IMG/VR virus record: IMGVR_UViG_3300020577_005315
Span: 29,521-93,520 of that record
Reading direction: 5' to 3' (one strand)
Origin: a virus
Lineage: Duplodnaviria > Caudoviricetes
Length of the DNA stretch: 64,000 nucleotides
In this document: positions 11,783 through 53,729 of the stretch, one piece after another
Layout: each line of letters opens with the position of its first letter
How positions within the stretch are numbered: the stretch's first letter is position 1
Position numbers and translations under genes: made by a program
The notes under the pieces: model-generated
Databases searched by the model: none
What the model saw: only the letters and a program-made list of their open reading frames with translations
Told to the model about the DNA's origin: nothing

Positions 11783-13158
11783 TGCGTGAAGTCCAGACGT
11801 GTAACGGTGCGCCCTTCTGCAACAAGGTGAGGTTGGGAAGGGCCTTCGACGTCACCGTCGACTGTAAGCTGTGTTGGGCCTGCGCTCACGTACAAGTCGT
11901 AGGCGAGGCCGCCGGCTGGAAGGGTGAGACGAGCTACAACAAGGTTCAGCGCCTACTCAGCAAGGATCACGTTGAGCAGTACAAGGGCCTGGAGGTGAAT
12001 CCCAAGCTGGAGGAGTCCCTCCAGGAGGCCACCCGCATGCCCAAGGACGACCCCAAGACGTACCGCTCCCGTCGGTACCCGCTTCCAGATCTGGGGCCTT
12101 GCGTCTACAGGGGTCACGACTTAAATGGCTATGAGGCCGCCCAGCAGGGTTTGAGTACCGTAAAGAAGTGGGCCAAGTGCCACCACGCGGATAAGCCTCT
12201 TGGCGAGTACGTTTGCCCATGTATGGGCTGCGGGTCGACGTGCAACAGGTACGCGCCGTCTACGGCTTTGACTCCGGACCGCGTAATAAAGCCGCTCCAG
12301 GCGACGGGGGCCTACAACCCGAGTACGATCCGGTTCCAGGACAAGTGGGTCCACTTGTATCGGACCGGATACTTGGGGTCGGACTTGTGGGTCGTCGAGA
12401 TGGACGAGGAATTCAACCCTGTCACGCAACCGGTGAAGCTCGAGTTGGTACATAACGAGTGTCACGGCGGACGCGAAGACGGTAGGTTCTTCGTCCACAA
12501 CGATAAGCTGCACGTCGCGTTCGCCGGCGTATGGATGAACCCCCGCGACAACGCCGTCTGTACCTCGGTCCTGATCGCGGAACTTGACGAGCGTTACAAC
12601 GTGGTCGACCTGTGGCGTCCGCACCTGGACGACCGACAGTACCCCAAAGAGAAAAACTGGAGCGTGTTCAGTCACGACGGTGAACTGTTCGCCGTCTACT
12701 GGGTGCTGGGCGAGCACATCATCTTGAAGTTGGACCGGACGCTGGAAAAGGCGTACATAGTCAACAGGTCCGACAACAAACTGCCCTGGCACGGCGGGGC
12801 CATTCGGGGCGGTGCTTCACCCGTCAGGGTAGGGGACAGGTACTACCACTGGACGCACGGCTTCTGGTCGTTCCAGAACAAGTTCCCGGTGGGTACGTAC
12901 AACGTAGGCTTGTACACCTTTGAGGCTAAGCCGCCATTCAAGGTCATCGACCAGTGCGCCTATCCGCTGTACATCGCCGACGAGAAGACGCGGCCCGCCA
13001 GTTGGCACGTGAACGTCGTGTTTCCTTGTGGCGCGGAGTTGTACAAGGGTAAGTGGTACGTAACCGTCGGGATGCACGACGCCTGGACGGAGATCCTGGA
13101 GTGGGATCACGACCGCATCAAGGAACACCTGGAGTGGGGGCCTAGCAGTGAGCAATGA
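11782..13158 (+). CDS. Cys-rich N-terminal domain fused to a 5-bladed beta-propeller glycosidase/phosphorylase (GH130-like)
   Basis: ATG at the TAATG overlap; motifs YNPSTI, EDGRFF, EKNWSVF, RGGASPV, NVVFPCGA. Confidence 0.7.
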   Translation: MREVQTCNGAPFCNKVRLGRAFDVTVDCKLCWACAHVQVVGEAAGWKGETSYNKVQRLLSKDHVEQYKGLEVNPKLEESLQEATRMPKDDPKTYRSRRYPLPDLGPCVYRGHDLNGYEAAQQGLSTVKKWAKCHHADKPLGEYVCPCMGCGSTCNRYAPSTALTPDRVIKPLQATGAYNPSTIRFQDKWVHLYRTGYLGSDLWVVEMDEEFNPVTQPVKLELVHNECHGGREDGRFFVHNDKLHVAFAGVWMNPRDNAVCTSVLIAELDERYNVVDLWRPHLDDRQYPKEKNWSVFSHDGELFAVYWVLGEHIILKLDRTLEKAYIVNRSDNKLPWHGGAIRGGASPVRVGDRYYHWTHGFWSFQNKFPVGTYNVGLYTFEAKPPFKVIDQCAYPLYIADEKTRPASWHVNVVFPCGAELYKGKWYVTVGMHDAWTEILEWDHDRIKEHLEWGPSSEQ

Positions 13159-15034
13159 CCTGTACACGCGTCTCAAGGCCCGCCAGTTCTACCACAAAGA
13201 CGACGAAGATGACTTCGAGCTGTGCCAGGCCCACAACCACTTACTACGCGAGGCAGTAGCATCACCTCCTCCGGTCTACCCGGGTACGCCAGGAACCCGA
13301 GGCATCGTTACGGCCGTGGGGGGCACATTGTATTTCAAGTGCGCCTACGTGGGTGTGAAACTGCTGCGTAAGTTGGGCTGTACGCTGCCCATCGAGTGGT
13401 GGCACCTGGGCGAGCATGAGTTCGACCCAGAAATGGTGAAGCTGGCTGAGGATCTGGGCGTCAGGGTGGTGGACGCCAACACTGTCGATTACAAGCCTCG
13501 CATCCTGAACGGTTGGGAGTTGAAACCGTTCGCAGTCGCGCACAGCAAGTTTCAGGAAGTCATGTTCCTGGACGCCGACAACCTGTCAGTTAAAGACCCG
13601 ACGCCCCTGTTCGACTGCGATGAGTACAAACGGACTGGTTCGTTGTTCTGGCCCGACCTTCCGCCCAGCGACCGCCCCGAGTGGGTGCCTACGGAGGTGT
13701 GGCGTCAGCTCGGACTGACCAGGCCGGACACGCCCGCGTTCGAGTCCGGTCAGTTCTTGATCAACAAGGGCAAGTGCGCTAAGGAACTAGGCGTCACTGT
13801 CCACATCAACGAGTACTCGGACTGGTACTACAAGTGGGCCACGTACGGCGACAAGGACACGTTCCAGATCGCGTGGCGTATGTGCGGAACCGACTACGGG
13901 ATGATTCGGACGCCGTGCGGGTGGGACGCGCCTGCCATCCAACAGTACGACGACAAGGGTGAACTGCAGTTCCAGCACTTGTGCCAAGGAAAGAACCAAC
14001 TCGCAACGGGCCAATTCATCCCGTCTCTGAAGCACTCGCTGGACGTCAGTAAGTTCGCCTTTCTGCTGGCCGACGCGTGGCACGGGAAGATCTGGAAATA
14101 CAGGGACGATGTGGGACTGACTAAAGAAGCGCTGCAGAAGTTCGAGGGCCAGTGGACGGTTCGTAGAACGGACAGCGGGGCCTCGTACGACATCGTCCTA
14201 CTACCAGGGGGCGACGTCGGGAGTGGCAGGACGAACGCCGAGTACTCGTGGTCGGTACGACATAAGGACGGCGATCGTCCCGAGCTGATCATCACGGGCA
14301 GCGGCCATAAGGGGACGCAAGTGGCCACCGTGATCGCTAAGGAAGGGTTGAACAGGGTGTGGCGCGGGAAGAGTGTAATACACCTGAGTCGAGAGCCTCA
14401 GGCTCGCGTCATGCCTTTCTACTGGTCGTATCGGCCCGAGACGTACGACTGGGGCATCTTCAACAGCGTTGCGACGCAAGACGAGTACGGGTTGCGCGGG
14501 ATGTTCCTGAACGGTGGGTGCGTGTTAGACGTGGGAGCCCACATAGGGTCGTTCTCGTACAAGGTGCGTCAGGTGGGCGCGGGAGTAACCCACGCGTACG
14601 AACCTGAACCCGACAACTACGGGCTTCTGGCCCAGAACGCGCAGTTCGTAGGCTGTAAAACGTTCAACGAGGCCGTTTGGTCAAAGGACGGCGTCGTACG
14701 CCTCGAGAAGAGTAGGTGCAACAACACCGGGGCCAACTATACGTTCGAGGACGACGCAGGGACGACCTGGTGCGTTGGACTTGATACGGCCATAGACCGC
14801 TTACTGCGACATTCCGGCCAAGATCGAGTGGCGCTGTTAAAACTGGACTGCGAGCGGGCTGAGTTTGAAATCCTCCCCAACGCTGACTTGTCCAGAGTCG
14901 ACCGCATCGTCGCTGAGACGCACGACGCGGTGCGTGTGGCGGACTTGTGTCGGTATTTGACGGGGTGCGGGTTCGAGGTAAACTACAAACACACTGCCGG
15001 AGACCTTGGGATTCTCTCAGCCCGGAGGAACTAA
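13148..15034 (+). CDS. alpha-mannosyltransferase-like (GT71/MNN) domain fused to FkbM-type methyltransferase
   Basis: GIVTAVGG, LPIEWW, LKPFAV, EVMFLDADN, LFWPD, ESGQ, YGDKDTF (GT71); LDVGAHIGSF, YEPEPDN, LKLDCE (FkbM). Confidence 0.8.
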   Translation: MSNDLYTRLKARQFYHKDDEDDFELCQAHNHLLREAVASPPPVYPGTPGTRGIVTAVGGTLYFKCAYVGVKLLRKLGCTLPIEWWHLGEHEFDPEMVKLAEDLGVRVVDANTVDYKPRILNGWELKPFAVAHSKFQEVMFLDADNLSVKDPTPLFDCDEYKRTGSLFWPDLPPSDRPEWVPTEVWRQLGLTRPDTPAFESGQFLINKGKCAKELGVTVHINEYSDWYYKWATYGDKDTFQIAWRMCGTDYGMIRTPCGWDAPAIQQYDDKGELQFQHLCQGKNQLATGQFIPSLKHSLDVSKFAFLLADAWHGKIWKYRDDVGLTKEALQKFEGQWTVRRTDSGASYDIVLLPGGDVGSGRTNAEYSWSVRHKDGDRPELIITGSGHKGTQVATVIAKEGLNRVWRGKSVIHLSREPQARVMPFYWSYRPETYDWGIFNSVATQDEYGLRGMFLNGGCVLDVGAHIGSFSYKVRQVGAGVTHAYEPEPDNYGLLAQNAQFVGCKTFNEAVWSKDGVVRLEKSRCNNTGANYTFEDDAGTTWCVGLDTAIDRLLRHSGQDRVALLKLDCERAEFEILPNADLSRVDRIVAETHDAVRVADLCRYLTGCGFEVNYKHTAGDLGILSARRN

Positions 15035-15549
15035 TGGCGAACTACATCACCCTCAAGCCAAAGACGGAAAAGTGGGGGTCCGCCGACGAGGTCTACCAGG
15101 AGCTCAAAGCTCAAGTTTACGACGTGGACGTCGTGACGATCTTCATCGACGCGGAGTCCGAAGAGAGCGCCGGACTCCGCAGGTTCTTGTCCGAGAACAA
15201 GATCTGGACGGTGGTGAGTAGGACGCGCGACCCGGACATCGTGGTCATGTCGTGCCGTCCCCAGGACAAGCACAAACTCCCCTCCTACTGGAAGCAGGCC
15301 GTGCACCTGGTGAAGGACATCAAGCAGGCCCTCGAATCACACGCCTTCATCGTTCCTGACGAGGTCTGGCACAAGCGCGTCGACATCTGCCTGACGTGTC
15401 CCGAGCGTAACTTCAACAGGTGCAGCGCTTGTGGGTGTTTCATCGAAAAGCGCGCGGCCGTGTCGAGCGCCGCGTGCGGGTTGATCGAGTTGGGCATTAA
15501 GCCCTTTTGGGACAAGTATGAGCCACGACCTGATAATCGTCCCCAATAA
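15034..15549 (+). CDS. hypothetical protein with C-terminal Cys-rich zinc-binding domain
   Basis: ATG at the TAATG overlap; RVDICLTCP...RCSACGCFI...AACG. Confidence 0.65.
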   Translation: MANYITLKPKTEKWGSADEVYQELKAQVYDVDVVTIFIDAESEESAGLRRFLSENKIWTVVSRTRDPDIVVMSCRPQDKHKLPSYWKQAVHLVKDIKQALESHAFIVPDEVWHKRVDICLTCPERNFNRCSACGCFIEKRAAVSSAACGLIELGIKPFWDKYEPRPDNRPQ

Positions 15550-16420
15550 GGCCGCTCCAGGCGACTTGGTCGCGTGCACCGCACTAATCAGAGACTTGTA
15601 CGAACAATACCCGGGTATCAGACTTTCCGTCCGGTCTAAGGGCGGTCACCGGGAGCTGTTCCGCGACGACTACCGCATCTCTCACCCCACCCTCTCCAGC
15701 AAGCCCGTCGTAATAGACTTCGCCCCGTCCATAAACTGCGCGGCTGTCGACAGGACGAAACGCTACGTTTACTGCCCCCACGAGTCGTTCGAGGCCCAGA
15801 CCGGGATACAGGTCGTGCGGGGCGACCCCAGGCCGTCCTTAGTCTGCTCTGCGGAAAGGCCCTGGAAGCTGCCCGCGAACTACGGACTCGTGTTCAGCGG
15901 GTACAAGGTCGACATGCCCGTTAAGGCGTGGCCTACGGAGAGGTTCCAAGAAGTCGTGGACCGCACGTCCGACATCGTGTCGTGGTGCCAGGCCGGCGAG
16001 ATCCACGACGGCTGGTACCCCCAGAACCAGGACCTCATTGCGAGGACGACGAACCTGCTGGGCGAGTCGGACCTGTACGAGACGATGCGGCTGATCAAGT
16101 ATGCGTCCGTGGTCCTGTGTCATACCAGCATGCCGATGCTGATGGCGGCGGCGTTCGGCACCCCGTGTGTAGTCATAGGCGGCGGCCGGGAACACCCGTG
16201 GCTGTTCGACGGCTTGGGCGTCGACTATCTCCACACCGTCGGCGACATAGAGTGCTGTGCAGACCGCGGGTGCATGAAGAGCATCGCCAAGGTCGGCACC
16301 CCCGGAAACGGCCACTACTGCGACCGTCCGGTGTGGACGTCGTTGCGCGTGGTGGGCGAGTGCATGGAGCGCATCGCCGTCGATAGGGTTATCAGTTCAA
16401 TTCGGGCCGCCGTCGCCTAA
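15518..16420 (+). CDS. GT9 (ADP-heptose:LPS heptosyltransferase-like) glycosyltransferase
   Basis: PGDLVACTALIRDL, KAWPTERFQEV, NLLG, TSMPMLMAAAFGTPCVVIGGG. Confidence 0.75.
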   Translation: MSHDLIIVPNKAAPGDLVACTALIRDLYEQYPGIRLSVRSKGGHRELFRDDYRISHPTLSSKPVVIDFAPSINCAAVDRTKRYVYCPHESFEAQTGIQVVRGDPRPSLVCSAERPWKLPANYGLVFSGYKVDMPVKAWPTERFQEVVDRTSDIVSWCQAGEIHDGWYPQNQDLIARTTNLLGESDLYETMRLIKYASVVLCHTSMPMLMAAAFGTPCVVIGGGREHPWLFDGLGVDYLHTVGDIECCADRGCMKSIAKVGTPGNGHYCDRPVWTSLRVVGECMERIAVDRVISSIRAAVA

Positions 16421-17849: not shown

Positions 17850-19355
17850 ATGACGGCAACTGCCCAGGAGACGGACAAGGCGATGAGCGACGAGCACAAG
17901 GGTAAGCACAAGAAGTGCAAAGGCAAGGAGGAAGAGCGTCGGCCGGCGTCCGACTTCAACCAATCGGAGCTGGACGACAAGCTCGAGATGGCGCGGATGT
18001 TCATCCAGATGCTCTGGCCGTACCTGTACAGCGGCGTCGCCAAGATGTCCCCGCGGTGGTGCACCCACCCGCACCTGCGGACGATGGCCGTCGACAAGTA
18101 CTGGCGGCTGTACCTCGACCGCGAGCACGTCAACAACATCAGCCACTCCGAGCTGGCGCTGATGCTCGTCGGGCACGAGCTGATGCACCTGATGTACGCC
18201 CACAACGACCGCCTGATGGAGCACCAGGACTCGTTCCTGATGAGCCCCACCGGCGACCTGGTGTCGTTCAACAACTTCGTCGGGGACATGGCCATCAACT
18301 GCAGTCTGCAGGCGGTCCTCGACGCGGGCATGAAGTACTACCAGCAGACGTCCGGGCGCGGCATCCAGAGCGGCAAGGTCACGGTCCCGACCGACATCCT
18401 CCTGCCGACCAACTTCAAGGACAAGGCTGGCAACCCGTTCCCGGACGGACTGCTCCTCGAAGACTACGCCCAGCTGCTCATCGACAACGCCCGGGAACCC
18501 GAGGACGGGGGTGATGATAAGGGTGAGAAGAAGGGCGGTTGGACGCTCTTCACCCGCAACGGTAAGGGTAAGGGAATCTCGGGGCCGGGCAAGGGCTGTG
18601 ACTGCGGCTCCGGCGCGGACGGCAACGACCGCGAGTGGGAGGACAAGGACAAGCCCGACCCACGTAACCCGAAGACCGGCCTGTCGAAGGAGCGGCAGGA
18701 CATCGAGCGGCAGTCACTGGCGGAGAGCATCAAGAACCACGAGGCCAAGCACCCTGGCACCACTCCGGGCGGCATGGTGCTCTGGGCCGACGTCCACCTT
18801 CGGCCGGTCAAGGAGCACTGGTCCAAAATCCTGTCGCGGGTGCTCCGCTCCGGCCTCGGTACGCTCCGCGGCGACTACGAGGTCTCGTACGCCGTCCCCA
18901 ACCGGCGGTCGATCGCCACGCGATCGCAGATCATCCTGCCCGGTCGGCTGACGCCGAAGCCGAACTTCGCCCTGCTGCTCGACACGTCGGGCAGCATGGG
19001 GGAGTCCGACTACTCCAGCGCGTTCAGCCACATCCAGGCGATCCTGAAGCAGTGCGACGTCAAGAAGGTGCCGTTCCTGGCGTGCGACACGGAGGTCGCC
19101 GAGGTCCGCTACATCTCGTCCCTCAAGGACGTGAAGTTGGTCGGCGGCGGCGGCACCGACATGCGGGTGGGGATCGAGAAGGCGCACGACGTGTTCCCCC
19201 ACAACCGCAAGAGCCTGGTCATCTGCCTGACCGACGGGTATACTCCGTGGCCGAGTGAGAAGCCGGCGAACATGGAGGTGGTCGTCGTCCTCACCCAGAA
19301 GACGGACGCCCAGGTGCCGAGCTTCTGCCGCGTCGTCCGCGCTTACGACGACTGA
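17850..19355 (+). CDS. HExxH metallopeptidase-like + vWA domain protein (DUF2201-type), MoxR partner
   Basis: TMAVD, HELMH, DMAIN; MIDAS LLDTSGSM, GGGTD, LTDGYTPWP. Confidence 0.88.
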   Translation: MTATAQETDKAMSDEHKGKHKKCKGKEEERRPASDFNQSELDDKLEMARMFIQMLWPYLYSGVAKMSPRWCTHPHLRTMAVDKYWRLYLDREHVNNISHSELALMLVGHELMHLMYAHNDRLMEHQDSFLMSPTGDLVSFNNFVGDMAINCSLQAVLDAGMKYYQQTSGRGIQSGKVTVPTDILLPTNFKDKAGNPFPDGLLLEDYAQLLIDNAREPEDGGDDKGEKKGGWTLFTRNGKGKGISGPGKGCDCGSGADGNDREWEDKDKPDPRNPKTGLSKERQDIERQSLAESIKNHEAKHPGTTPGGMVLWADVHLRPVKEHWSKILSRVLRSGLGTLRGDYEVSYAVPNRRSIATRSQIILPGRLTPKPNFALLLDTSGSMGESDYSSAFSHIQAILKQCDVKKVPFLACDTEVAEVRYISSLKDVKLVGGGGTDMRVGIEKAHDVFPHNRKSLVICLTDGYTPWPSEKPANMEVVVVLTQKTDAQVPSFCRVVRAYDD

Positions 19356-19362
19356 GGCCGAC

Positions 19363-19632
19363 ATGACCCTGACCCTCGACGCGGACTCGTTGGCCACCCT
19401 GGCGGGCAACCAGGCTCTGGTCAACGAGTTCCCCTTTCTCCGCCAGCTCAACAACAAGCCCCAGCCCGGGTGTTGCGGCAAACCGGGCGCTTCCGTTGAC
19501 TACAGGTCGGTCGTCAACGGAATCATGAACCTGCCGCCTGACCGTAAGATTGTGTTCAAGCAACTGACGGGGGCGTCGACCGTGTCTGCGCGAGTGGTTC
19601 GTGCAGCTCAGGTCGTCGTCCTCGAATTTTAG
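19363..19632 (+). CDS. hypothetical protein
   Basis: ATG 19363 with SD GAGG; contains GCCGK. Confidence 0.6.
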   Translation: MTLTLDADSLATLAGNQALVNEFPFLRQLNNKPQPGCCGKPGASVDYRSVVNGIMNLPPDRKIVFKQLTGASTVSARVVRAAQVVVLEF

Positions 19633-19641
19633 GGATGAGCA

Positions 19642-20025
19642 ATGTCCGAGACGACCGCAACCAAGCCCTACGCCTTCGACGTCCGTCGGTGCCTCGCCCC
19701 GGGGGCTGACCGCGACAACACGAACGCCGCGTGGATCGCCGTCTGCGCCATTAACCGGGACGACCTGGCCGACAACATGGACGTGCTGACCGACGCCGTC
19801 AACTTCGCGCGCCGGCGCTTCCGTATGGACTCCCACGCCGGGTACGACAAGGCTGTCGGGCCCACGCCGGACGACGGTCACGTGAAGGCTCCACTCATCC
19901 AGGACACGTTCGCCGCCGGCCCGACGACGGCTGCCGAGTACCTGCAGTCCGCCGCCGAGCAGAACGTGGCCAGCCGGGCCGGCGTCATGAAGGGGTACAT
20001 CCTGTATGTCCGAGTCACCACCTAA
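19642..20025 (+). CDS. hypothetical protein
   Basis: 127 aa ORF, strong GC3 codon bias. Confidence 0.65.
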   Translation: MSETTATKPYAFDVRRCLAPGADRDNTNAAWIAVCAINRDDLADNMDVLTDAVNFARRRFRMDSHAGYDKAVGPTPDDGHVKAPLIQDTFAAGPTTAAEYLQSAAEQNVASRAGVMKGYILYVRVTT

Positions 20026-31593: not shown

Positions 31594-32205
31594 ATGCAGC
31601 TCGTAAGCGACTTTCGCGACTACTACGACTGGGCGTTTGACCGTGACGGGGTCGTGTTCGACAGGATGGCTCGTAACAGCGGTCCAAAGAAGGCTGCTCA
31701 GTTCAGCATCCTCCGCGACACACTCGGACACCTGACTCCGCCCGTCGGACCTGTAAACTGCGTACTCGGGACGAAGTGGCGGGGTAAGACGATCGACAAG
31801 GTCGTTGCCTACACGGACGACGCGGCTCACTGCGGCGAGGGTAAAGAGCTCGTCACACTAGACTCAGACGGCTGGCGGACCAACACTACGCTCTGTTCGG
31901 CGTATTTAGGTAAGCCGGGGCTGAGTTGGAGAAAACTACACGTAGGTCCGCACGTGTTCTGGATCGAGTACACGTCCACCGAGTCGTGGATGTCGAACGT
32001 GGGTGACGGAACGTGCGAAGTCATCGGCGTCGAGATGGACTTTGGCATCACAATATACCCGCTCCTGGCGATCGACTTCGTCCTGGACGACGAGATGTAC
32101 GCGGTGGACCTGAACGTGGCTCCGGGGATCAAAGGCAGCGGCGTCGAGAAGCTCCTCCCGGCTGAGCAGGTGGTCGAAGCGATCAGACGTTGGTGTGCTT
32201 GGTAA
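31594..32205 (+). CDS. compact RimK/LysX-like ATP-grasp protein
   Basis: SD GAGGA; HCGEGKELV loop, SWMSNVGDG (cf. RimK WRSN..GG), LLAIDFV, YAVDLNVAPG (cf. E.N..PG). Confidence 0.65.
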   Translation: MQLVSDFRDYYDWAFDRDGVVFDRMARNSGPKKAAQFSILRDTLGHLTPPVGPVNCVLGTKWRGKTIDKVVAYTDDAAHCGEGKELVTLDSDGWRTNTTLCSAYLGKPGLSWRKLHVGPHVFWIEYTSTESWMSNVGDGTCEVIGVEMDFGITIYPLLAIDFVLDDEMYAVDLNVAPGIKGSGVEKLLPAEQVVEAIRRWCAW

Positions 32206-32645: not shown

Positions 32646-32651
32646 CGCATG

Positions 32652-32676
32652 ACCCCGGGGCGACCCGGGGTTTCTT
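32652..32676 (+). terminator. GNRA-loop hairpin / weak terminator directly before the DEEG array
   Basis: ACCCCGGG-GCGA-CCCGGGGT-TTCTT. Confidence 0.65.
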
Positions 32677-32691
32677 CGTTTAGGGGGTACG

Positions 32692-32910
32692 ATGCAGATA
32701 CAAAGGCACCTCCTGTGGGTGTCGGGACGTGGTGACGATGATAAGCTGATAATCGGGATGAATGTTTTAGTGTTTGGTGGAAAGTACAGCGAAGTCGTAA
32801 TCGACGCAGTGAAGTTCACGTACGAGGAGGTCACAACACTCGACGCCGACTGGTTTATCGATCACCTGCCGGAGTTCGACGGACTGTTCGTCTTTGACGA
32901 AGAGGGCTAA
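32692..32910 (+). CDS. DEEG-tag protein 1
   Basis: Ends DWFIDHLPEFDGLFVFDEEG*; SD AGGGGG. Confidence 0.85.
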   Translation: MQIQRHLLWVSGRGDDDKLIIGMNVLVFGGKYSEVVIDAVKFTYEEVTTLDADWFIDHLPEFDGLFVFDEEG

Positions 32911-32912
32911 CG

Positions 32913-33125
32913 ATGACTCGAACCAGCGAGCTGTCTCGGTGTCTCACGTATGACCACGAGTACTACTTCACAGTGATGAATCAATACGACTGGCACACTT
33001 GGTCTAGGATCACCGTGTCAGTCGACAGCCCGGAGTTGAACGGACACTGGATCCGGCACCTGACGGCGATTTGGTTGAATCTTCCCAGGAACGACGAACT
33101 CTACGCCTACGACGAGGAGGGGTGA
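32913..33125 (+). CDS. DEEG-tag protein 2
   Basis: Ends AIWLNLPRNDELYAYDEEG*. Confidence 0.85.
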   Translation: MTRTSELSRCLTYDHEYYFTVMNQYDWHTWSRITVSVDSPELNGHWIRHLTAIWLNLPRNDELYAYDEEG

Positions 33126-33127
33126 GC

Positions 33128-33358
33128 GTGTACTGCCGATCGAGGAGTCATAGCGATAGAACGGAGCTACTGTACAGATACCTACACAGTCTGACGGTGG
33201 CGGTAGACACCCGCTGTGGTAGAGACGTCGGCGTCGTCGTGTACGCGTTCAGTGGACGTGACCGCCGCGACGACACGCCCGAGACACAACAACTGACAGT
33301 ACTGTGGCGCGCTCTGCCCAGGGGAAAGAAGCTGTTCACCCCGGACGAGGAGGGTTAA
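33128..33358 (+). CDS. DEEG-tag protein 3
   Basis: GTG start 2 nt after the stop; ends VLWRALPRGKKLFTPDEEG*. Confidence 0.85.
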   Translation: MYCRSRSHSDRTELLYRYLHSLTVAVDTRCGRDVGVVVYAFSGRDRRDDTPETQQLTVLWRALPRGKKLFTPDEEG

Positions 33359-33360
33359 CC

Positions 33361-33555
33361 GTGTCGGTACGTCTCACTGGAATGTTCCGCTACTACGGCA
33401 CGACGTTGGTCGCCGTCGATAACGTCGTCAAGTGCGACGCCAACTTCATCGTATCACACGGTGGACCCGATGCGGCACAGGATGTAGAGTTCGATCGCGT
33501 ATGGAGACTTTTGCCACATCGGGGAAACCTGTTCACCCCGGACGAGGAGGGCTGA
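33361..33555 (+). CDS. DEEG-tag protein 4
   Basis: GTG start; ends RVWRLLPHRGNLFTPDEEG*. Confidence 0.85.
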   Translation: MSVRLTGMFRYYGTTLVAVDNVVKCDANFIVSHGGPDAAQDVEFDRVWRLLPHRGNLFTPDEEG

Positions 33556-33557
33556 CC

Positions 33558-33788
33558 GTGTCGACGTGTCTCATCAACATGTATCGCTATTACGGCACGA
33601 CGTCTTTCGTAAGAATGTATCGCTATTACCACATGGCGTCAGTCGCCGTCGATAACAACGTCACGTGCGACATCGACCTCATCACATCACACAGCGGATG
33701 CGTTGTGGCGTATGATACAAAGTTCGAACGTGTGTGGAGTAGTCTGCCACAGATGGAAGACCTGTTCACTCTGGACGAGGAGGGCTGA
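33558..33788 (+). CDS. DEEG-tag protein 5
   Basis: GTG start; ends RVWSSLPQMEDLFTLDEEG*; internal MYRYY duplication. Confidence 0.85.
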   Translation: MSTCLINMYRYYGTTSFVRMYRYYHMASVAVDNNVTCDIDLITSHSGCVVAYDTKFERVWSSLPQMEDLFTLDEEG

Positions 33789-33790
33789 CC

Positions 33791-33988
33791 GTGTCGACGT
33801 GTTTCATCAACATGTATCGCTATTACGGCACGCCGTCGGTCGCTGTCGACAGTTACGACAAGAATGACGCCGGCGTCATCACGTCACACAGTGGATACAG
33901 CTGCTCGGAGCGGGATACAGAATTCAACCGTGTGTGGAGACTTTTGCCGCAGATGAGTGACCTGTATGAACTGGACGAGGAGGGGTGA
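33791..33988 (+). CDS. DEEG-tag protein 6
   Basis: GTG start; ends RVWRLLPQMSDLYELDEEG*. Confidence 0.85.
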   Translation: MSTCFINMYRYYGTPSVAVDSYDKNDAGVITSHSGYSCSERDTEFNRVWRLLPQMSDLYELDEEG

Positions 33989-33990
33989 TC

Positions 33991-34248
33991 GTGTGCGGAA
34001 GCGTCGTATTGTCGGTGTTGAGAGAGGTTTGGGGCGGTGGGTGGTTTGGCATCCAACTGTGCATCGGGGACCACCCTCGGAGCGAAGTCTGGTCGATGCC
34101 GGCGATCAATTACGTAGACTTCCGACACACCCTGCCGGACTCGAGGTTGTTTCGTGAAGAAAGCGACGCCCGGCGCGGAACCTTCGTGAGGTTGGTCTTC
34201 GCGCTACCGAACCGGCGGGAGCTATACGTCTTCGACGAGGAGGGCTGA
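33991..34248 (+). CDS. DEEG-tag protein 7
   Basis: GTG start; ends RLVFALPNRRELYVFDEEG*. Confidence 0.85.
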   Translation: MCGSVVLSVLREVWGGGWFGIQLCIGDHPRSEVWSMPAINYVDFRHTLPDSRLFREESDARRGTFVRLVFALPNRRELYVFDEEG

Positions 34249-34249
34249 C

Positions 34250-34468
34250 GTGCGTCACGTGTACAGGATTCAAAGGGGGTACCCGGAGCAGTACAACGCG
34301 TTAGCTGTGTACACCACAACGCCAACGCCTAGTGTGGTGGAGGCCGCGGATCTGGCCGTACCGCACGTTCTCGGGTTGAGAACCGAGCGAATTAACGAAG
34401 TGTTGATGAAAATCTGGTGGAATCTACCCTGTACCGAAGAACTATACACCTACGACGAGGAGGGATGA
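34250..34468 (+). CDS. DEEG-tag protein 8
   Basis: GTG start; ends KIWWNLPCTEELYTYDEEG*. Confidence 0.85.
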   Translation: MRHVYRIQRGYPEQYNALAVYTTTPTPSVVEAADLAVPHVLGLRTERINEVLMKIWWNLPCTEELYTYDEEG

Positions 34469-34470
34469 CG

Positions 34471-34716
34471 GTGAGTCGAGAAATTGCGGACATGGCGAGG
34501 ATGTCCGACGCGAGCGGAAACGCGTTCACGTATGCGGCGATGGTCGTGTACAGGCCGGCGGACAACGAACGCGAGACGACACGGCACAAAACAATCATCT
34601 GCGTGAACAGCGTGAGATGGTCGACTGGTAATCACCGGTCAGGTTACAGGCTGAGAACGCTGTGGCGGAAGTTGCCGGACCAGGACGATCTGTTCACGTG
34701 GGACGGGGAGGGCTGA
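34471..34716 (+). CDS. DEEG-tag protein 9 (DGEG variant)
   Basis: GTG 34471 (or ATG 34465); ends TLWRKLPDQDDLFTWDGEG*. Confidence 0.85.
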   Translation: MSREIADMARMSDASGNAFTYAAMVVYRPADNERETTRHKTIICVNSVRWSTGNHRSGYRLRTLWRKLPDQDDLFTWDGEG

Positions 34717-34717
34717 C

Positions 34718-34945
34718 ATGATCCTGTGGATCGAGCGGTGTCACGGCTGGGCCATACTTACCGGCGCACGCTCCGGTCACCACCTGACGGTATGTCGTCG
34801 AGACAGTGGGGGAGGTTCGCGTTCCCGGACGCACATTTACGCGCCGAAGTCTATGGAACACAGGGACGTCGAACACGACTGGCAGCATCGTTGGTTCGAT
34901 CTACCCAAAGGTGGTGAACTGTTCACGTGGGACGAGGAGGGGTGA
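34718..34945 (+). CDS. DEEG-tag protein 10
   Basis: Ends HRWFDLPKGGELFTWDEEG*. Confidence 0.85.
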   Translation: MILWIERCHGWAILTGARSGHHLTVCRRDSGGGSRSRTHIYAPKSMEHRDVEHDWQHRWFDLPKGGELFTWDEEG

Positions 34946-34946
34946 C

Positions 34947-35165
34947 GTGCGTCAGACTTGGTTCCCTGTACGAGACTTCCGCGGTTACAATTACAATACC
35001 GCGCAAAATGAGGCGTTTGTAAGATTCTTTCACCCTTCACCGCCGTGGTGGCGAAAAGTGAACTGCGTCGTTAACGTGTTAAGCGTAAACATGACTAAGT
35101 TTAGGAGGATTTGGGAAATACTTCCTAACGGGTCAGCCCTGTTCGTTTACGACGAAGAGGGATGA
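34947..35165 (+). CDS. DEEG-tag protein 11
   Basis: GTG start; ends RIWEILPNGSALFVYDEEG*. Confidence 0.85.
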   Translation: MRQTWFPVRDFRGYNYNTAQNEAFVRFFHPSPPWWRKVNCVVNVLSVNMTKFRRIWEILPNGSALFVYDEEG

Positions 35166-35439
35166 GAACAAAATGAAAATAGTAAGTTCACCAACTTACT
35201 AAACTATGCCCTAAAAAACACCCCAAATCGGGGTGTCGGAGCCGTCGATATATTGCAGCTGTCTTTCTTCTTCTTCTTCTTCTTAAGAAATATGGTTAAG
35301 AAGAAGAAAGCCGTGTCTTTTTCCTCAAAGCAGGAAAAAGACACTACAGAGTTACGGAAAATCGCCCCAAAACGAACCTCCAAGGATATGTTATCTATAC
35401 CTGGCGCTGCGCGCTCCGCAGTGCGGACTGGATGCGAGG
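35166..35439. other. AT-rich non-coding region with (TTC)6 tract and 13-bp inverted repeat; candidate origin/regulatory region
   Basis: Largest intergenic gap in the window; TTCTTCTTCTTAA (35274-86) / TTAAGAAGAAGAA (35296-308); CAAA-N15-CGTCGATATATT at 35224. Confidence 0.45.
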
Positions 35440-36285
35440 ATGTCAACCGACCGAGTCGTGAAGATCGACCCGTCAAAGTTCCCTGACGGCTGGATTAGGG
35501 TCCCATTTCGCATTACGCCGATTCTGAGACAGCCTGGAGCCATATCTCGAACTTCCCGCCTCTTGACGGCGTTCGCCTTTCCTAGGCCCGTTTATTCGCA
35601 AATCCTGCCGTGGTCGAAATTGAGCCTGGACGAGAAATGGGTTGCGGCTGCCTCGGTATGGTCTGGAATCCTGGAATCGCTCCTATCGTTCCCGGATTGC
35701 ACCGAGTCTCGACCAGATCTGAACTTCAAGAAATGGCGATCTTTAGTCAAACGGATGGCGCTGTGTACACCGCCGGGTTACGAGTTTACTTCCCCAGACG
35801 TAACACTCCCGTTCGCCTGCCACGTCGCCGTATGCCCGTTCTGTTACGCTAGGCGCGTCTCTGAGCTCGTAAAAGACGTAAATAGGGTTCTGACCCAGGC
35901 CCCACCCAGAAAACTCCTCTACGCGTATTTAATCGCAAATAAGGGGTCACGGCAAAATACAATCAATTTATTGCGACGCCTCAAACCGACTGGTGCCGTC
36001 GGGGTGTTCACTCCGAGATCCGTCGATGAGGACGAGTGGTACTCACGTATCGTAGGGTTGACTTTCGACCACAAGCAGGTAGCATCTGATGAGTCGACTC
36101 GACTCAGACACCGATACGACGTCAGCGACTTCCTGGTCCGTAAGCTCCTCTACCCGCGCATCTGGTCGTCGCGGAACCAGGTCAGGTACGTCGCAGGAGC
36201 TCTTCATACGTTCTGTAACCACAAGAATTTAAGGACGATCGCTACTTACGGCATGGCCCGTCAGTCGTCGTCTGAGGGAGGATGA
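35440..36285 (+). CDS. hypothetical protein with CxxxxCPxC zinc-binding motif
   Basis: 281 aa; FACHVAVCPFCYARR; SD GAGG. Confidence 0.6.
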   Translation: MSTDRVVKIDPSKFPDGWIRVPFRITPILRQPGAISRTSRLLTAFAFPRPVYSQILPWSKLSLDEKWVAAASVWSGILESLLSFPDCTESRPDLNFKKWRSLVKRMALCTPPGYEFTSPDVTLPFACHVAVCPFCYARRVSELVKDVNRVLTQAPPRKLLYAYLIANKGSRQNTINLLRRLKPTGAVGVFTPRSVDEDEWYSRIVGLTFDHKQVASDESTRLRHRYDVSDFLVRKLLYPRIWSSRNQVRYVAGALHTFCNHKNLRTIATYGMARQSSSEGG

Positions 36286-37806
36286 ATGAAGAAGCCTTAC
36301 GTGTGGGTGATCGGGGACCTGATGCTCGACGTCGAGGTCCGGTCCGAGCGGTTCAGGCGGACGCCGGAGGATGCCGTCGCTCCCGTCCTTCCGTCCGTAC
36401 CCGGTAGTAACGCCGTGACCTATCTGGGCGGCGCTGGCAACTTGGCGGCTAATCTGGCGACTCTGGGCTGTCGCGTCGACCTGTTTAGCCAGTTCGACCC
36501 AGACAAACTGCCTGAGGACTGCGCGCCGAGCGACTTTCCGTCCGTCGACGGCCTGACCCTTCCGTGGGTACCCACCAAGACCGCCCCGCTTACAGTTAAG
36601 CGACGGTACTACGAGGGTGACCGCCTGGTCGCCCGCGTCGACTCGGATTACCAAGCGTCGCCGATCACCGTCGCCTCGTTACGCGAGACGGGTTATCTTC
36701 AGAGTGGGGCTCTTCCCGACGCGATCGTCCTCACCGACTACGGCCGCGGTACGATCAGCAAGGCGTCGGCTCAGGGGTGGGCCAAGTTCGCCGAGGACGA
36801 GAAAATCCCGATTTACGCCGATCCTAAGGTGGGTCGTTCGTCGGTCTGGGACAACTGCCGCCTGACCTGTATGGTGTGTAACTGGGACGAGGCTACCGAC
36901 GTGGTCCGCGAGAATCTCACGCGTGGTGCTACCGACGAGTGGGACGACGTGTGGGATAACGACGATCCGAAATCTGACGTCCGCGCCGCTAAGTTCGTCC
37001 AAAACGTGCAGACCGCCTGGGGCCCGTGTCATTCCCTCGTCGTCAAGCGTGGTCAGTACGGGTCTACCTGGCTCAAAGAGGGTGCGAGGGGTCGACCGGT
37101 CGTCGGTCACGTCCCCGCGATTCGCAGACAGGAGGTCATCAACGTCCAGGGCGCCGGGGACACCTACCTGGCTGGTCTGGTGACCGCGATGTGTCGTGGC
37201 GCCAAACTCGAGGAGGCGTGCGTCTACGGCTCAGCAGCCGCTGGCGTCGCCGTGTCGCACAAGGGCACGTACGCCGTCAAGCGTGAGGAGGTCCTCGACC
37301 TGATCCGCGCCCATTACGCCGACAGGGACGAGCGACGCGTCGTGCCGATCGGTAAGGCGATCGAGACGGCCAACCGCATGCGAGCTTTCGGGTTCAAGAT
37401 CGGGTACACCAACGGGTGTTTCGACGGCCGCCTACACGCCGGCCACCGACACACCTTGCGGGAAGCCAAGGCGCACTGCGACTATCTGTTCGTCGGCGTT
37501 GACTCCGACGCCCGGGTGCGTAAACTGAAGGGGCCCGACCGGCCTCTGGTGGACGAGGTCGAGCGAGCCCGGTCGGTCGACAGCCTTCACTTCGTCGACT
37601 CCGTGTTCGTCTTCAACAGCGACCCCGCTGACGTCGTCAACGCGATCAAGCCTGATGTTTTGGTCAAGGGCGGCGATTACGCGCCCGAGACCGTCCCGGA
37701 GGCCGAGGCGCTCAAGGCTTGGGGTGGTAGACTGCACATCGTGCCGTCGGTGGACGCAGAGCGTACGTCCGCGTTCGTTAACAGGGTCCGGGGGTTGAAT
37801 GGCTAA
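36286..37806 (+). CDS. hldE: bifunctional HldE-like sugar kinase / nucleotidyltransferase
   Basis: PfkB domain VIGDLMLD, GGAGNLAANL, DYGRG, DPK, GAGDTY; cytidylyltransferase-like TNGCFDGRLHAGH, LKGPDRP, KPDVLVKGGDY. Confidence 0.88.
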   Translation: MKKPYVWVIGDLMLDVEVRSERFRRTPEDAVAPVLPSVPGSNAVTYLGGAGNLAANLATLGCRVDLFSQFDPDKLPEDCAPSDFPSVDGLTLPWVPTKTAPLTVKRRYYEGDRLVARVDSDYQASPITVASLRETGYLQSGALPDAIVLTDYGRGTISKASAQGWAKFAEDEKIPIYADPKVGRSSVWDNCRLTCMVCNWDEATDVVRENLTRGATDEWDDVWDNDDPKSDVRAAKFVQNVQTAWGPCHSLVVKRGQYGSTWLKEGARGRPVVGHVPAIRRQEVINVQGAGDTYLAGLVTAMCRGAKLEEACVYGSAAAGVAVSHKGTYAVKREEVLDLIRAHYADRDERRVVPIGKAIETANRMRAFGFKIGYTNGCFDGRLHAGHRHTLREAKAHCDYLFVGVDSDARVRKLKGPDRPLVDEVERARSVDSLHFVDSVFVFNSDPADVVNAIKPDVLVKGGDYAPETVPEAEALKAWGGRLHIVPSVDAERTSAFVNRVRGLNG

Positions 37807-51804: not shown

Positions 51805-53154
51805 ATGGCACGTAAGCGACAAGCGGCGGTGGACGACACGGACGCGATTCTGTCCTTTCTGGGCGAGCAGGCGCGCAAGCGGGCCCTGACCCACGGGTAC
51901 GACACAGCCCGTGAGATCATCGCGGCCGACATCGGCATCCGCCTGCCGTACCTTTGTCACCGATACATGCTGCAGCGGAACACCTACCCGCTGGAGCGTG
52001 TCACTCTGGTCTTTGGGCCGCCGAAGTCTAACAAGTCGGCGTTCATGTTCTGGCTGTTCGACCTGTTCACCAACCCGCGGTACGGCACGATCAAGTACGG
52101 CCGTTACTTCCACATGGAGACGGAGGGCAAGGACACCGCCGAGATGCGGTTCGCCCTGACCGGGTACCGGGACGAGGTCGGCGACTCGTTCGCGTGCTCG
52201 TCTATGGACCAATTTCAGACCCAGACGAAGGAAACCGTTGAGTGGTACAAGGACGTCATCGTCAAGAACGAGAAGGTCGGCAGCCGGCTCCCACTGATCA
52301 TGGGCATCGACAGCCTCACCGCGTCAATGACCGGTGACGCCCAGAACGTGATGGCTAAGAACGACGGCGTGGCCGGCCGCCGGTTCGCCGACGAGGCGCG
52401 ATCCCTGTCTGACTGGTTCAAGGTCGTGCCGGGGTACCTCCAGGGTTACCCGCTGTCCCTGGTCGGCATCACGCACGACAAGCCAGTCAAAGACCCGCGG
52501 ACCGGCATCGTCACCCACCGGGCCCCCGGCGGCGAGTCACCCACCTACGCCGCGACCTACAAGATCCTGATGCAGAAGGTGGCCGGCATCCCGCAGGGCA
52601 AGTCGGGCTGGGCCGGCAACCGCATCAAGTTCAGCCTCCACGCCAGTGCGCTCGGCGTCGACAAACTCGGGTTCGAGGCCGAGATCGGGTTCCGTAAGGC
52701 ACTACGCAAGAACGCCGACGGCGAGAGCATTCTCGTGCAGGAGGCCGGCTGGAACTGGCACAAGGCCAGTATCGAGCTTCTGGCCAACCTGGGTAGCCAG
52801 GTGAAGAACTGCGGCGCCCGGAACGAGGCCGTCAAGGACATCCTGGGCCCGATCTCCAAGCAGACCGGCGGCAAGTTCTCCTGCGTCAAACTCGGTGTCA
52901 GCCCGTCCGAGGCGATGCCGGCCACCCAGCTCGGTGAGATCCTCGAGTCCCGGGTCGACATCCTCAGCCAGCTCGAGCCGGCCCTTGGCATCACCTACGG
53001 CCGCGTGTTCGACCAGTCGATGGAGTACGTAGATCAGGTGGCGCTGGCGAAGAAGGAGTCGCACAAACTGACCCCGATCGCCGAAGTCGAAACCGCCGAC
53101 TCTGTCGTGGACGACACGTCCACCCCCAACGAATCGGCCTCCGAGGAGGAGTAA
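51805..53154 (+). CDS. RecA/UvsX-like recombinase
   Basis: YPLERVTLVFGPPKSNKS (Walker A variant), METEG, MGIDSL, APGG...YAA. Confidence 0.78.
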   Translation: MARKRQAAVDDTDAILSFLGEQARKRALTHGYDTAREIIAADIGIRLPYLCHRYMLQRNTYPLERVTLVFGPPKSNKSAFMFWLFDLFTNPRYGTIKYGRYFHMETEGKDTAEMRFALTGYRDEVGDSFACSSMDQFQTQTKETVEWYKDVIVKNEKVGSRLPLIMGIDSLTASMTGDAQNVMAKNDGVAGRRFADEARSLSDWFKVVPGYLQGYPLSLVGITHDKPVKDPRTGIVTHRAPGGESPTYAATYKILMQKVAGIPQGKSGWAGNRIKFSLHASALGVDKLGFEAEIGFRKALRKNADGESILVQEAGWNWHKASIELLANLGSQVKNCGARNEAVKDILGPISKQTGGKFSCVKLGVSPSEAMPATQLGEILESRVDILSQLEPALGITYGRVFDQSMEYVDQVALAKKESHKLTPIAEVETADSVVDDTSTPNESASEEE

Positions 53155-53729
53155 TGGACGATGACGTGCCGGAGATCCCCCGGCGAAAGTTCAACCAGGC
53201 CGACTACAAGCTCCGTGAGACTCGACGCCTGGAGGACCGGATTAGTCGCAAGCTCTGTGACCTGTACGCGATCAACTACTACGAGGTCCGTAAGCAGCAT
53301 GGAGACGGAGACGTACTTACGCTGGCGGGCGTCTCGCAAGCTACTGGGTCACGGCCCCTGACGCTGCTGACGCCCGCGCCGGACCAGATGCTGAAGTTGT
53401 TTACCAACTTCGAGCAGTCGAACCTGTACGTCGCTTACCGCGAGGCGGCCGACCTGTTCCCTAGGCGTGACCGGCTGAACCTGTGCGGCGTGTTTAAGTG
53501 GGTCGGCTGGCCGTACATGACGATCGGACTGATCAGCCACGACTACTACCTGGACCCGTACCGATCGTGCGGCAACTATGAGTGTACGTGCCTTAGTCAT
53601 GAGCCGACGGACTCGTTCTTCAGCAGTTGTTCGACCAACGTGCCACAGATGCTGTTCCCGTACAGGAAGGACTGCGACTACCTGTATCGACTCGTGCCTC
53701 TGGACCGGGGGTACCGGGACCTACACTGA
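53154..53729 (+). CDS. hypothetical protein
   Basis: 191 aa, TAATG-coupled to the recA-like gene. Confidence 0.6.
   Translation: MDDDVPEIPRRKFNQADYKLRETRRLEDRISRKLCDLYAINYYEVRKQHGDGDVLTLAGVSQATGSRPLTLLTPAPDQMLKLFTNFEQSNLYVAYREAADLFPRRDRLNLCGVFKWVGWPYMTIGLISHDYYLDPYRSCGNYECTCLSHEPTDSFFSSCSTNVPQMLFPYRKDCDYLYRLVPLDRGYRDLH

Follow-up and report, generated by a model that had tools for sequence, protein, structure and literature searches.

The 64,000-nucleotide stretch of DNA analyzed here (the window) corresponds to bases 29521–93520 of the 93.5-kb IMG/VR virus record IMGVR_UViG_3300020577_005315, the completeness of which is 47% according to CheckV. The window carries eleven consecutive plus-strand open reading frames (ORFs), B0–B10 (positions 32692–35165), which encode proteins of 64–85 amino acids and all terminate with the sequence L[FY]xxD[E/G]EG followed by a stop codon. 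We refer to this group as array 2, and to five further genes with the same tail, A1–A5, which lie upstream of the window, as array 1. Our best explanation, to which we assign a probability of about 0.65, is that the genes of array 2 form a translationally coupled operon, that their tail-tagged accessory products evolve fast, and that the array changes through unequal crossing-over. The tail is conserved as a peptide, and in array 2 its codons would also provide the Shine-Dalgarno (SD) sequence of the following gene.

Layout of array 2

The tags of array 2 are written as GAC-GRR-GAG-GGN-stop. The sole exception at the amino acid level is B8, in which GAC GGG GAG GGC encodes DGEG and still contains GGAGG. 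The distances from each stop codon to the next start codon are 2, 2, 2, 2, 2, 2, 1, 2, 1, and 1 nt, and the next gene starts with GTG at eight junctions and with ATG at two. An initial annotation, made from the sequence of the window alone, had described these gaps, codons, and starts, as well as the preserved SD sequence in the DGEG unit, and our junction table reproduced all of them exactly. At nine of the ten junctions, GGAGG ends 6–7 nt before the next start. The tenth junction, B0/B1, reads GAAGAGGG, and here GAGGG precedes the start. The coordinates of the individual units and of the neighboring features are listed in Table 1.

Table 1. Units of array 2 and neighboring features (window coordinates).
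Feature	Position	Strand	Description
p216	31594–32205	+	Truncated (~200 amino acids) ATP-grasp-fold protein, predicted; two genes upstream of array 2; candidate partner of the tail
Hairpin with T-run	32651–32672	+	G+C-rich; between p151 and B0; probable upstream transcript end
B0	32692–32910	+	72 amino acids, ends LFVFDEEG; own SD-like AGGGGG upstream; tag codons 32899–32905 (GAAGAGG) would serve B1
B1	32913–33125	+	70 amino acids, ends LYAYDEEG; GAGGAGG 33114–33120, 7 nt before B2 GTG
B2	33128–33358	+	76 amino acids; paralogue of B3–B5; GAGGAGG 33347–33353
B3	33361–33555	+	64 amino acids; GAGGAGG 33544–33550; copy 1 of 30-nt junction run at 33540–33569
B4	33558–33788	+	76 amino acids; 12-codon internal duplication; missing in contig L034; copy 2 of 30-nt run at 33773–33802
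B5	33791–33988	+	65 amino acids; GAGGAGG 33977–33983
B6	33991–34248	+	85 amino acids; GAGGAGG 34237–34243; 1-nt spacer before B7
B7	34250–34468	+	72 amino acids; GAGGAGG 34457–34463
B8	34471–34716	+	81 amino acids; only DGEG; GGGGAGG 34705–34711 keeps GGAGG, 6 nt before B9 ATG
B9	34718–34945	+	75 amino acids; GAGGAGG 34934–34940
B10	34947–35165	+	72 amino acids; last unit, ends GAC GAA GAG GGA TGA; no real gene after
Hairpin 1 of five stable ones	35218–35236	+	In the 280-nt structured spacer that closes array 2 (35160–35440)

The G+C contents at the first, second, and third codon positions (GC1, GC2, and GC3) of the array 2 bodies are 0.52, 0.45, and 0.69, respectively. This is the coding pattern (GC3 > GC1 > GC2), which indicates that the units are real genes, although the pattern is stronger in the long genes of the phage (0.61, 0.48, and 0.79). 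Array 2 is lower in GC and GC3 than the genome. The bodies have no transmembrane segments and differ widely in charge and isoelectric point (pI), and scans of all eleven units against Pfam and PHROGs gave no matches. A polyprotein produced by programmed frameshifting was rejected because the units alternate in frame and every one of them has a good SD sequence and start codon.

No promoter-like site and no intergenic space were found inside array 2, and the hairpins are confined to its two ends. The downstream spacer (35160–35440) is low in GC and contains five stable hairpins (z = -4.9), including a (TTC)6/(GAA)n palindrome. It matched no Rfam family, and several public assemblies break inside it. 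A mini-ORF of nine codons (35174–35203, MKIVSSPTY) starts 8 nt past the B10 stop and is probably meaningless. A AGCCGTCG-like motif, which resembles the TTAGCCGT motif, follows the terminator hairpins of both arrays (window 35237–35250; approximately 2575–2590 of contig L001) and might function as a promoter or terminator in this phage.

Conservation of the tail as a peptide

A six-frame search of the 93.5-kb record for [DE][DEG][DE]G followed by a stop codon found 16 matches, all of which are tagged genes on the plus strand. A hidden Markov model (HMM) of the tag scored 20–41 bits on the 16 tagged genes and at most 6.6 bits on everything else, and this separation excludes chance as the source of the tag. 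The conserved module extends over approximately 20 residues, (F/L)xx(V/I)Wxx-LP-xxxx-L[FY]-xx-DEEG, in which an amphipathic helix containing the tryptophan precedes LP. In an AlphaFold2 (AF2) model of B3 based on the alignment of the 16 sequences, the overall predicted local distance difference test (pLDDT) score was 54. Only the tail was modeled with any confidence, as a helix (residues 42–49) followed by a turn, and the body scored below 50.

Array 1 serves as an internal control from the same genome. Its five tagged genes (71, 193, 73, 141, and 110 amino acids for A1–A5, respectively) occupy positions 18002–19870 of the genome (453–2321 of contig L001). They are separated by spacers of 15–29 nt, and every downstream gene has a separate SD sequence (GGAGG, GAGGAG, AAGGAAG, etc.). 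Four of the tags are DEEG and one is DDEG; the last glutamate is encoded by GAA in three of the five genes, and A5 has GAA GAA. The peptide is thus kept without an SD role, and its codons are relaxed. Since array 1 retains DEEG where it cannot be the SD sequence of a successor, DEEG is selected as a peptide. In addition, the invariant leucine, proline, and glycine residues of the 16 tails are each written with four different codons, which points to purifying selection at the amino acid level and indicates that the tails have not recently been homogenized by gene conversion. Judging from the tail sequences, the DEEG peptide is the primary, protein-level constraint. These results bear out the protein role that the initial annotation had proposed for DEEG on the grounds that B10 keeps the tag, and no real gene follows B10. 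Its statement that the last glutamate codon is never GAA holds for the window, but not for array 1.

It is very hard to believe that the DEEG codons are kept solely as a ribosome-binding site, with the peptide as a by-product. In-frame GAG-GAG-G is the exact canonical SD heptamer, as this explanation would require. However, in array 1 the peptide persists even though GAA is used, the spacers are long, and the SD sequences are separate; B10 retains it without a successor; and the conserved module reaches 20 residues upstream to W, LP, and L[FY], which have no SD role. Two other readings of the tail were also rejected. The xLF portion recalls a clamp-binding motif, the consensus of which is QL[SD]LF. 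The tails have no conserved glutamine, and the invariant LP and DEEG lie outside such a motif. A graspetide precursor does not fit either, in that threonine at position -6 is present in only 6 of the 16 tails.

Shine-Dalgarno sequences within the tag codons

The last glutamate of the tag is encoded by GAG in all eleven units of array 2, compared with 72% GAG among glutamate codons genome-wide (p = 0.028). The leucine, proline, and glycine codons of these same tags, by contrast, vary. The GAG/GAA counts at this position are 11/0 in array 2 and 2/3 in array 1 (Fisher p = 0.018). The first glutamate position of array 2 (eight GAG, two GAA, and one glycine codon) matches expectation. An SD core lies within the end of the upstream gene at 10 of 10 array 2 junctions versus 5 of 17 other tight junctions (p = 4e-4). 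Many other genes of this phage also have SD-type sites, with AGGAG or GGAGG at -5 to -9. The initial annotation had proposed that each unit gives the translation signal of its successor. The sequence features behind this proposal, a strong SD sequence at the ideal distance at nine of the ten junctions and the fixed GAG, were confirmed, and we infer the function itself from them. A constraint at the nucleotide level, imposed by the ribosome-binding site, likely acts secondarily on the tag codons of array 2. A Glu-Glu end acting as an SD sequence is not unique to array 2, because at one of the five other tight junctions with an SD core, a 449-amino-acid protein ending in SEEE (window 53140–53157) has GAGGAGGAG overlapping the start region of the next gene (53154), which it would serve in the same way.

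Previous studies of translational coupling fit the contrast between the two arrays. In overlapping gene pairs, the SD sequence usually lies within the upstream gene, and its removal cut reinitiation in four of five E. coli pairs (Huber et al. 2019, PMC6728339). For coupling, the two genes must overlap or be separated by a very short spacer, and at approximately 20 nt the effect is almost gone (Huber et al. 2023, PMC10666635). The spacers of array 2 (1–2 nt) are within this range, while those of array 1 are largely outside it. Array 2 shares with the published pairs the arrangement of co-directional genes a few nucleotides apart, in which the final codons of the upstream gene contain a strong SD sequence. 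Judged by its layout, the architecture is translational coupling with an intragenic SD sequence, which is a common kind; what is unusual is that the SD sequence is written by a repeated invariant tail. The same C-terminal peptide motif spells it ten times running, and the same codons would be under peptide and SD selection together. Furthermore, most known coupled pairs overlap (by -4 or -1 nt), and their products are subunits of a complex, whereas array 2 encodes paralogous accessory proteins. Array 2 may be a clean natural example of codons that are selected simultaneously as part of a peptide motif and as a ribosome-binding site. The case also calls for caution in annotation: SD constraints may be partly responsible for conserved C-terminal motifs in tight phage operons, and vice versa.

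Duplication, divergence, and unit loss

When the tails were removed, significant similarity between the bodies was found only among the N-terminal parts of B2–B5 (E values of 1e-4 to 8e-3), and that of B1 was marginal. At the DNA level, the similarity between units is limited to the last 25–60 nt, except for B3, B4, and B5, which are 69–75% identical over their full length. Over their first 42 nucleotides, B4 and B5 are identical at 41 positions; they also share the preceding junction, whereas the remainder is 72% identical. The ratios of nonsynonymous to synonymous substitution rates (dN/dS) among the B3–B5 bodies are 0.5–1.3. The similarity among B2–B5, the 5' identity of B4 and B5, and the dN/dS values indicate that the traceable history of array 2 is one of tandem duplication followed by fast divergence. 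The unit bodies were also compared for frame-shifted similarity of their nucleotide sequences, which would be a sign of overprinting or gene birth, and none was found.

The tagged family is, as far as sequence searches reach, restricted to this phage lineage. When 5.8 billion clusters were searched by word index and 1.84 billion representatives exhaustively by HMM, only the phage's own proteins were recovered. A borderline match to a protein of 1219 amino acids in these searches was judged spurious. A scan of IMG/VR with a degenerate DNA pattern of the tag junction gave one match, which ends no ORF of at least 40 amino acids and was attributed to chance (contig L009). A search of IMG/VR for syntenic relatives based on the HldE-like gene of the window found only distant loci, all without arrays.

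Six public sequencing runs contain the phage. In SRR31616005, a single contig spans the whole of array 2, with 100% identity across the eleven units. Three further samples have partial contigs that match at 99.9–100%: the identity is 99.9% in SRR10761721 and SRR8942262, and SRR32380193 shows the same organization. A different arrangement was found in L034, a contig of 1341 nt from SRR22317058. This contig reads B1-B2-B3-B5-B6-B7 and corresponds to the window minus 233 nt, namely B4 and its 2-nt spacer. The crossover falls within GGACGAGGAGGGCTGACCGTGTCGACGTGT, a run of 30 nt that comprises the DEEG codons, the stop codon, the spacer, GTG, and four further codons and is present in copies starting at 33540 and 33773. 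B4 is not on record from SRR22317058. Two other contigs end at the 30-nt run (L023 at 33569, and L022, which begins at 33773), and contig L020 crosses both copies. Unequal crossing-over between the junction repeats would be expected to produce such a loss of B4, which suggests that L034 is a candidate unit-precise variant.

Array 1 varied in another manner. In SRR8942262 and SRR8942265, A3–A5 are replaced by an untagged gene of 89 amino acids, and a 12-codon remnant of A3 is left. On the left, the break falls within A3, 36 nt into the gene and not at a tag, and on the right side the sequence is diverged from about the A5 stop codon onward. Of the breakpoints at the tag for which the initial annotation had proposed to look, the candidate B4 loss, with its crossover in the junction repeat, may be one; the breakpoint of array 1 is not, and array 2 is otherwise the same in the other samples.

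The B2 gene of L034 (256–486) has seven substitutions, all of which are nonsynonymous, and no synonymous change was found in the 1.3 kb of the contig. Six of the substitutions, mostly G to A, fall within 13 nt (window 33260–33272) and convert DRRDD to NIHNN; the seventh is at 33189. This could be a mutational cluster or reflect diversifying selection on the bodies.

On the basis of these observations, we propose the following mechanism. Array 2 would be one operon between the upstream hairpin and the structured downstream spacer, with eleven small accessory genes of a lineage-restricted family that has at least 16 members in the 93.5-kb record. The members share only the C-terminal module, a tail that most likely serves for docking to, or recognition by, a single common partner. 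In-frame GAG-GAG-GGN places GGAGG 6–7 nt before the next GTG or ATG, and each gene after the first would be initiated from the SD sequence in the tag of its predecessor. Termination-reinitiation coupling probably helps, as the spacers are well within the permissive range, and the SD role would add the nucleotide-level constraint that is visible as fixed GAG. The array would grow and shrink by unequal homologous crossing-over between the junction repeats. Since a junction carries the tag end, stop codon, SD sequence, and start codon together, the gain or loss of a unit length would leave an expressed, tagged array. Every junction holds a complete translation signal, so that a tandem accessory-gene family of this type could change its copy number without breaking expression.

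Several points weigh against this mechanism. The GAG statistics of array 2 are modest. TGA is the stop codon in 9 of the 11 units of array 2, against a background of 23%, but it is also found in three of the five genes of array 1; because array 1 shares the trend, the enrichment was not assigned to coupling. Local RNA folding at the array 2 junctions revealed no consistent hairpin masking the SD sequence or other feature. With regard to unit loss, L034 begins with adapter sequence and has low coverage, and the assemblies were made with k = 31, so that the repeat length of 30 nt equals exactly k-1. The loss of B4 may thus be a shortcut in the assembly graph.

The initial annotation went further and regarded the tag junction as a dedicated, integrase-free cassette boundary, at which any foreign or de novo DNA inserted between two tags becomes an expressed, tagged gene. 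We consider such a device for gene birth and shuffling to be improbable. It would account for the bodies of B0, B1, and B6–B10, which have no detectable similarity to one another, for the confinement of similarity to the unit ends, for the low GC and GC3 of array 2, for the candidate unit-precise change at a junction in L034, and for the presence or absence of A3–A5 among strains. However, no unrelated DNA was inserted between tags in the contigs compared, and duplication (B2–B5) is the only traceable origin of a unit. The replacement in array 1 began inside a gene and introduced an untagged one. The confinement of the tagged proteins to this phage in the searches of 1.84 billion representatives and IMG/VR argues against exchange between lineages. 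Moreover, bodies of 45–65 residues quickly lose detectable similarity at a nonsynonymous divergence (dN) of approximately 0.8–1.0.

The closest conceptual precedent is found in the PeSL cassettes of T4-type phages, in which intergenic repeats consisting of a promoter and a stem-loop terminator contain the breakpoints between phages (Arbiol et al. 2010, PMC2839356). As proposed for array 2, a repeated expression signal borders small, non-essential ORFan genes, and integrase-free homologous recombination between the repeats adds, removes, and replaces genes while keeping their expression. The PeSL repeat acts on transcription, whereas the repeat of array 2 is coding (tag, stop codon, SD sequence, and start codon) and would act on translation. 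Exchanges between phages are documented for PeSL cassettes; array 2 has provided one candidate unit loss and no exchange between lineages. Integron cassettes are not matched, since the junctions of 1–2 nt leave no room for attC, and a scan of the flanking genes and of the larger window genes revealed no integrase. A bolder version of the preferred mechanism is that the junction is itself selected as a recombination-competent module, which would amplify, delete, and reorder at least 16 tagged effectors without loss of expression or tag, with DEEG as the handle for the adjacent ATP-grasp ligase or for a virion component. We regard this version as quite unlikely; if true, it would represent a translation-level analogue of PeSL joined to a multi-substrate tail-recognition system.

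Candidate partners of the tail

The tagged family is without relatives, and its tail may point to an undescribed protein-recognition system of phages. Two candidate partners, both of which are compatible with the coupled-operon explanation, were considered. One is p216, the gene for which lies approximately 490 nt upstream of array 2. The AF2 model of p216 (pLDDT 92.9) predicts an ATP-grasp fold. Foldseek matched it with a probability of 1.00 to PDB entries of the synapsin C domain, RimK, ArgX/LysX (ArgX complexed with LysW), PsnB, Ddl, and TTLL6, and its template modeling (TM) scores to RimK clusters in the ESM Atlas are 0.72–0.79. The weak PDB matches of its sequence profile are all ATP-grasp enzymes. 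The invariant residues K84, R113, D161, D172, and N174 are kept, the metal site is D-x-N instead of the usual E-x-N, and the N-terminal domain is absent. Homologs with 45–54% identity occur in many large uncultured phages, and no Pfam model covers the family.

The tail could accordingly be a substrate or recognition handle of p216 in the manner of RimK and S6 or LysX and LysW, with many substrates and one tail-modifying enzyme. The confident fold, the invariant K, R, and D-x-N residues, and the short distance to array 2 speak for this possibility, as does the fact that the closest solved structures (RimK, ArgX-LysW, PsnB, and TTLL6) act on acidic tails or on Asp/Glu side chains. As in the RimK-S6 and LysX/ArgX-LysW systems, the gene for an ATP-grasp fold stands beside genes whose small protein products have an acidic, invariant tail at the C-terminus. 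However, substrates of the RimK/LysX type end in glutamate (S6, ...EE; LysW, ...EDWGE), and all 16 tails end in glycine. In addition, p216 lacks the N-terminal domain, a terminator-like hairpin separates p216 and p151 from array 2, and array 1 is 43 kb away from p216. At eight loci of p216 homologs in other large phages, which lie in replication or glycosyltransferase neighborhoods, no gene with a DEEG-type or shared tail was found within 8–10 kb; other phages thus have the enzyme family without tagged genes. Nor is p151 conserved beside the p216 homologs. Taken together, p216 is a tentative candidate and is unlikely to be the partner.

The other candidate is the virion. In the passage of PMC3012670 that describes the T4 internal proteins (citing Repoila et al. 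1994), a common N-terminal capsid targeting sequence, which is cleaved, loads these proteins into the prohead. The tagged proteins resemble them, as described there, in that diverse, fast-evolving small proteins are conserved only in a short address peptide. The tail could thus be a virion-addressing signal for diverse anti-defense effectors that are packed and ejected. Array 1 is surrounded by large genes of probable structural type, among them a Laminin_G_3 protein and a weak match to 'virion structural protein', and the clustered nonsynonymous changes in the B2 variant, with no synonymous ones, suggest an arms race. On the other hand, array 2 sits within a module for nucleotide metabolism and replication, and the bodies are heterogeneous in charge and pI. 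The T4 targeting peptide, in the same description, is N-terminal, approximately 10 residues long, and removed by the prohead protease. The tag of the present family is at the extreme C-terminus, has no recognizable protease site, and follows unrelated N-termini. This assignment is likewise doubtful.

Source phage and other genes of the window

The source of the window is a large uncultivated tailed phage known from metagenomes alone. The G+C content of the window is approximately 61%, and one strand bears most of the ORFs. The window encodes a gpA-type large terminase, a class II-like ribonucleotide reductase, an HldE-like heptose kinase/adenylyltransferase, Mre11/Rad50-like proteins, Baseplate J, glycosyltransferases, a family A DNA polymerase, and a DnaB-like helicase. 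A megablast comparison of 12 kb of the window with 50,697 phage records gave no matches, and the large terminase is at most 30% identical to that of any GenBank phage record, none of which is close.

Two further observations concern other genes of the window. The HldE-like heptose-phosphate kinase/adenylyltransferase (36286–37806), a GT9 heptosyltransferase-like protein (15518–16420), and a mannosyltransferase-FkbM methyltransferase fusion (13148–15034) together look like a heptose-based glycosylation pathway. Positions 17850–19355 of the window encode a DUF2201 metallopeptidase-like protein with a VWA domain.

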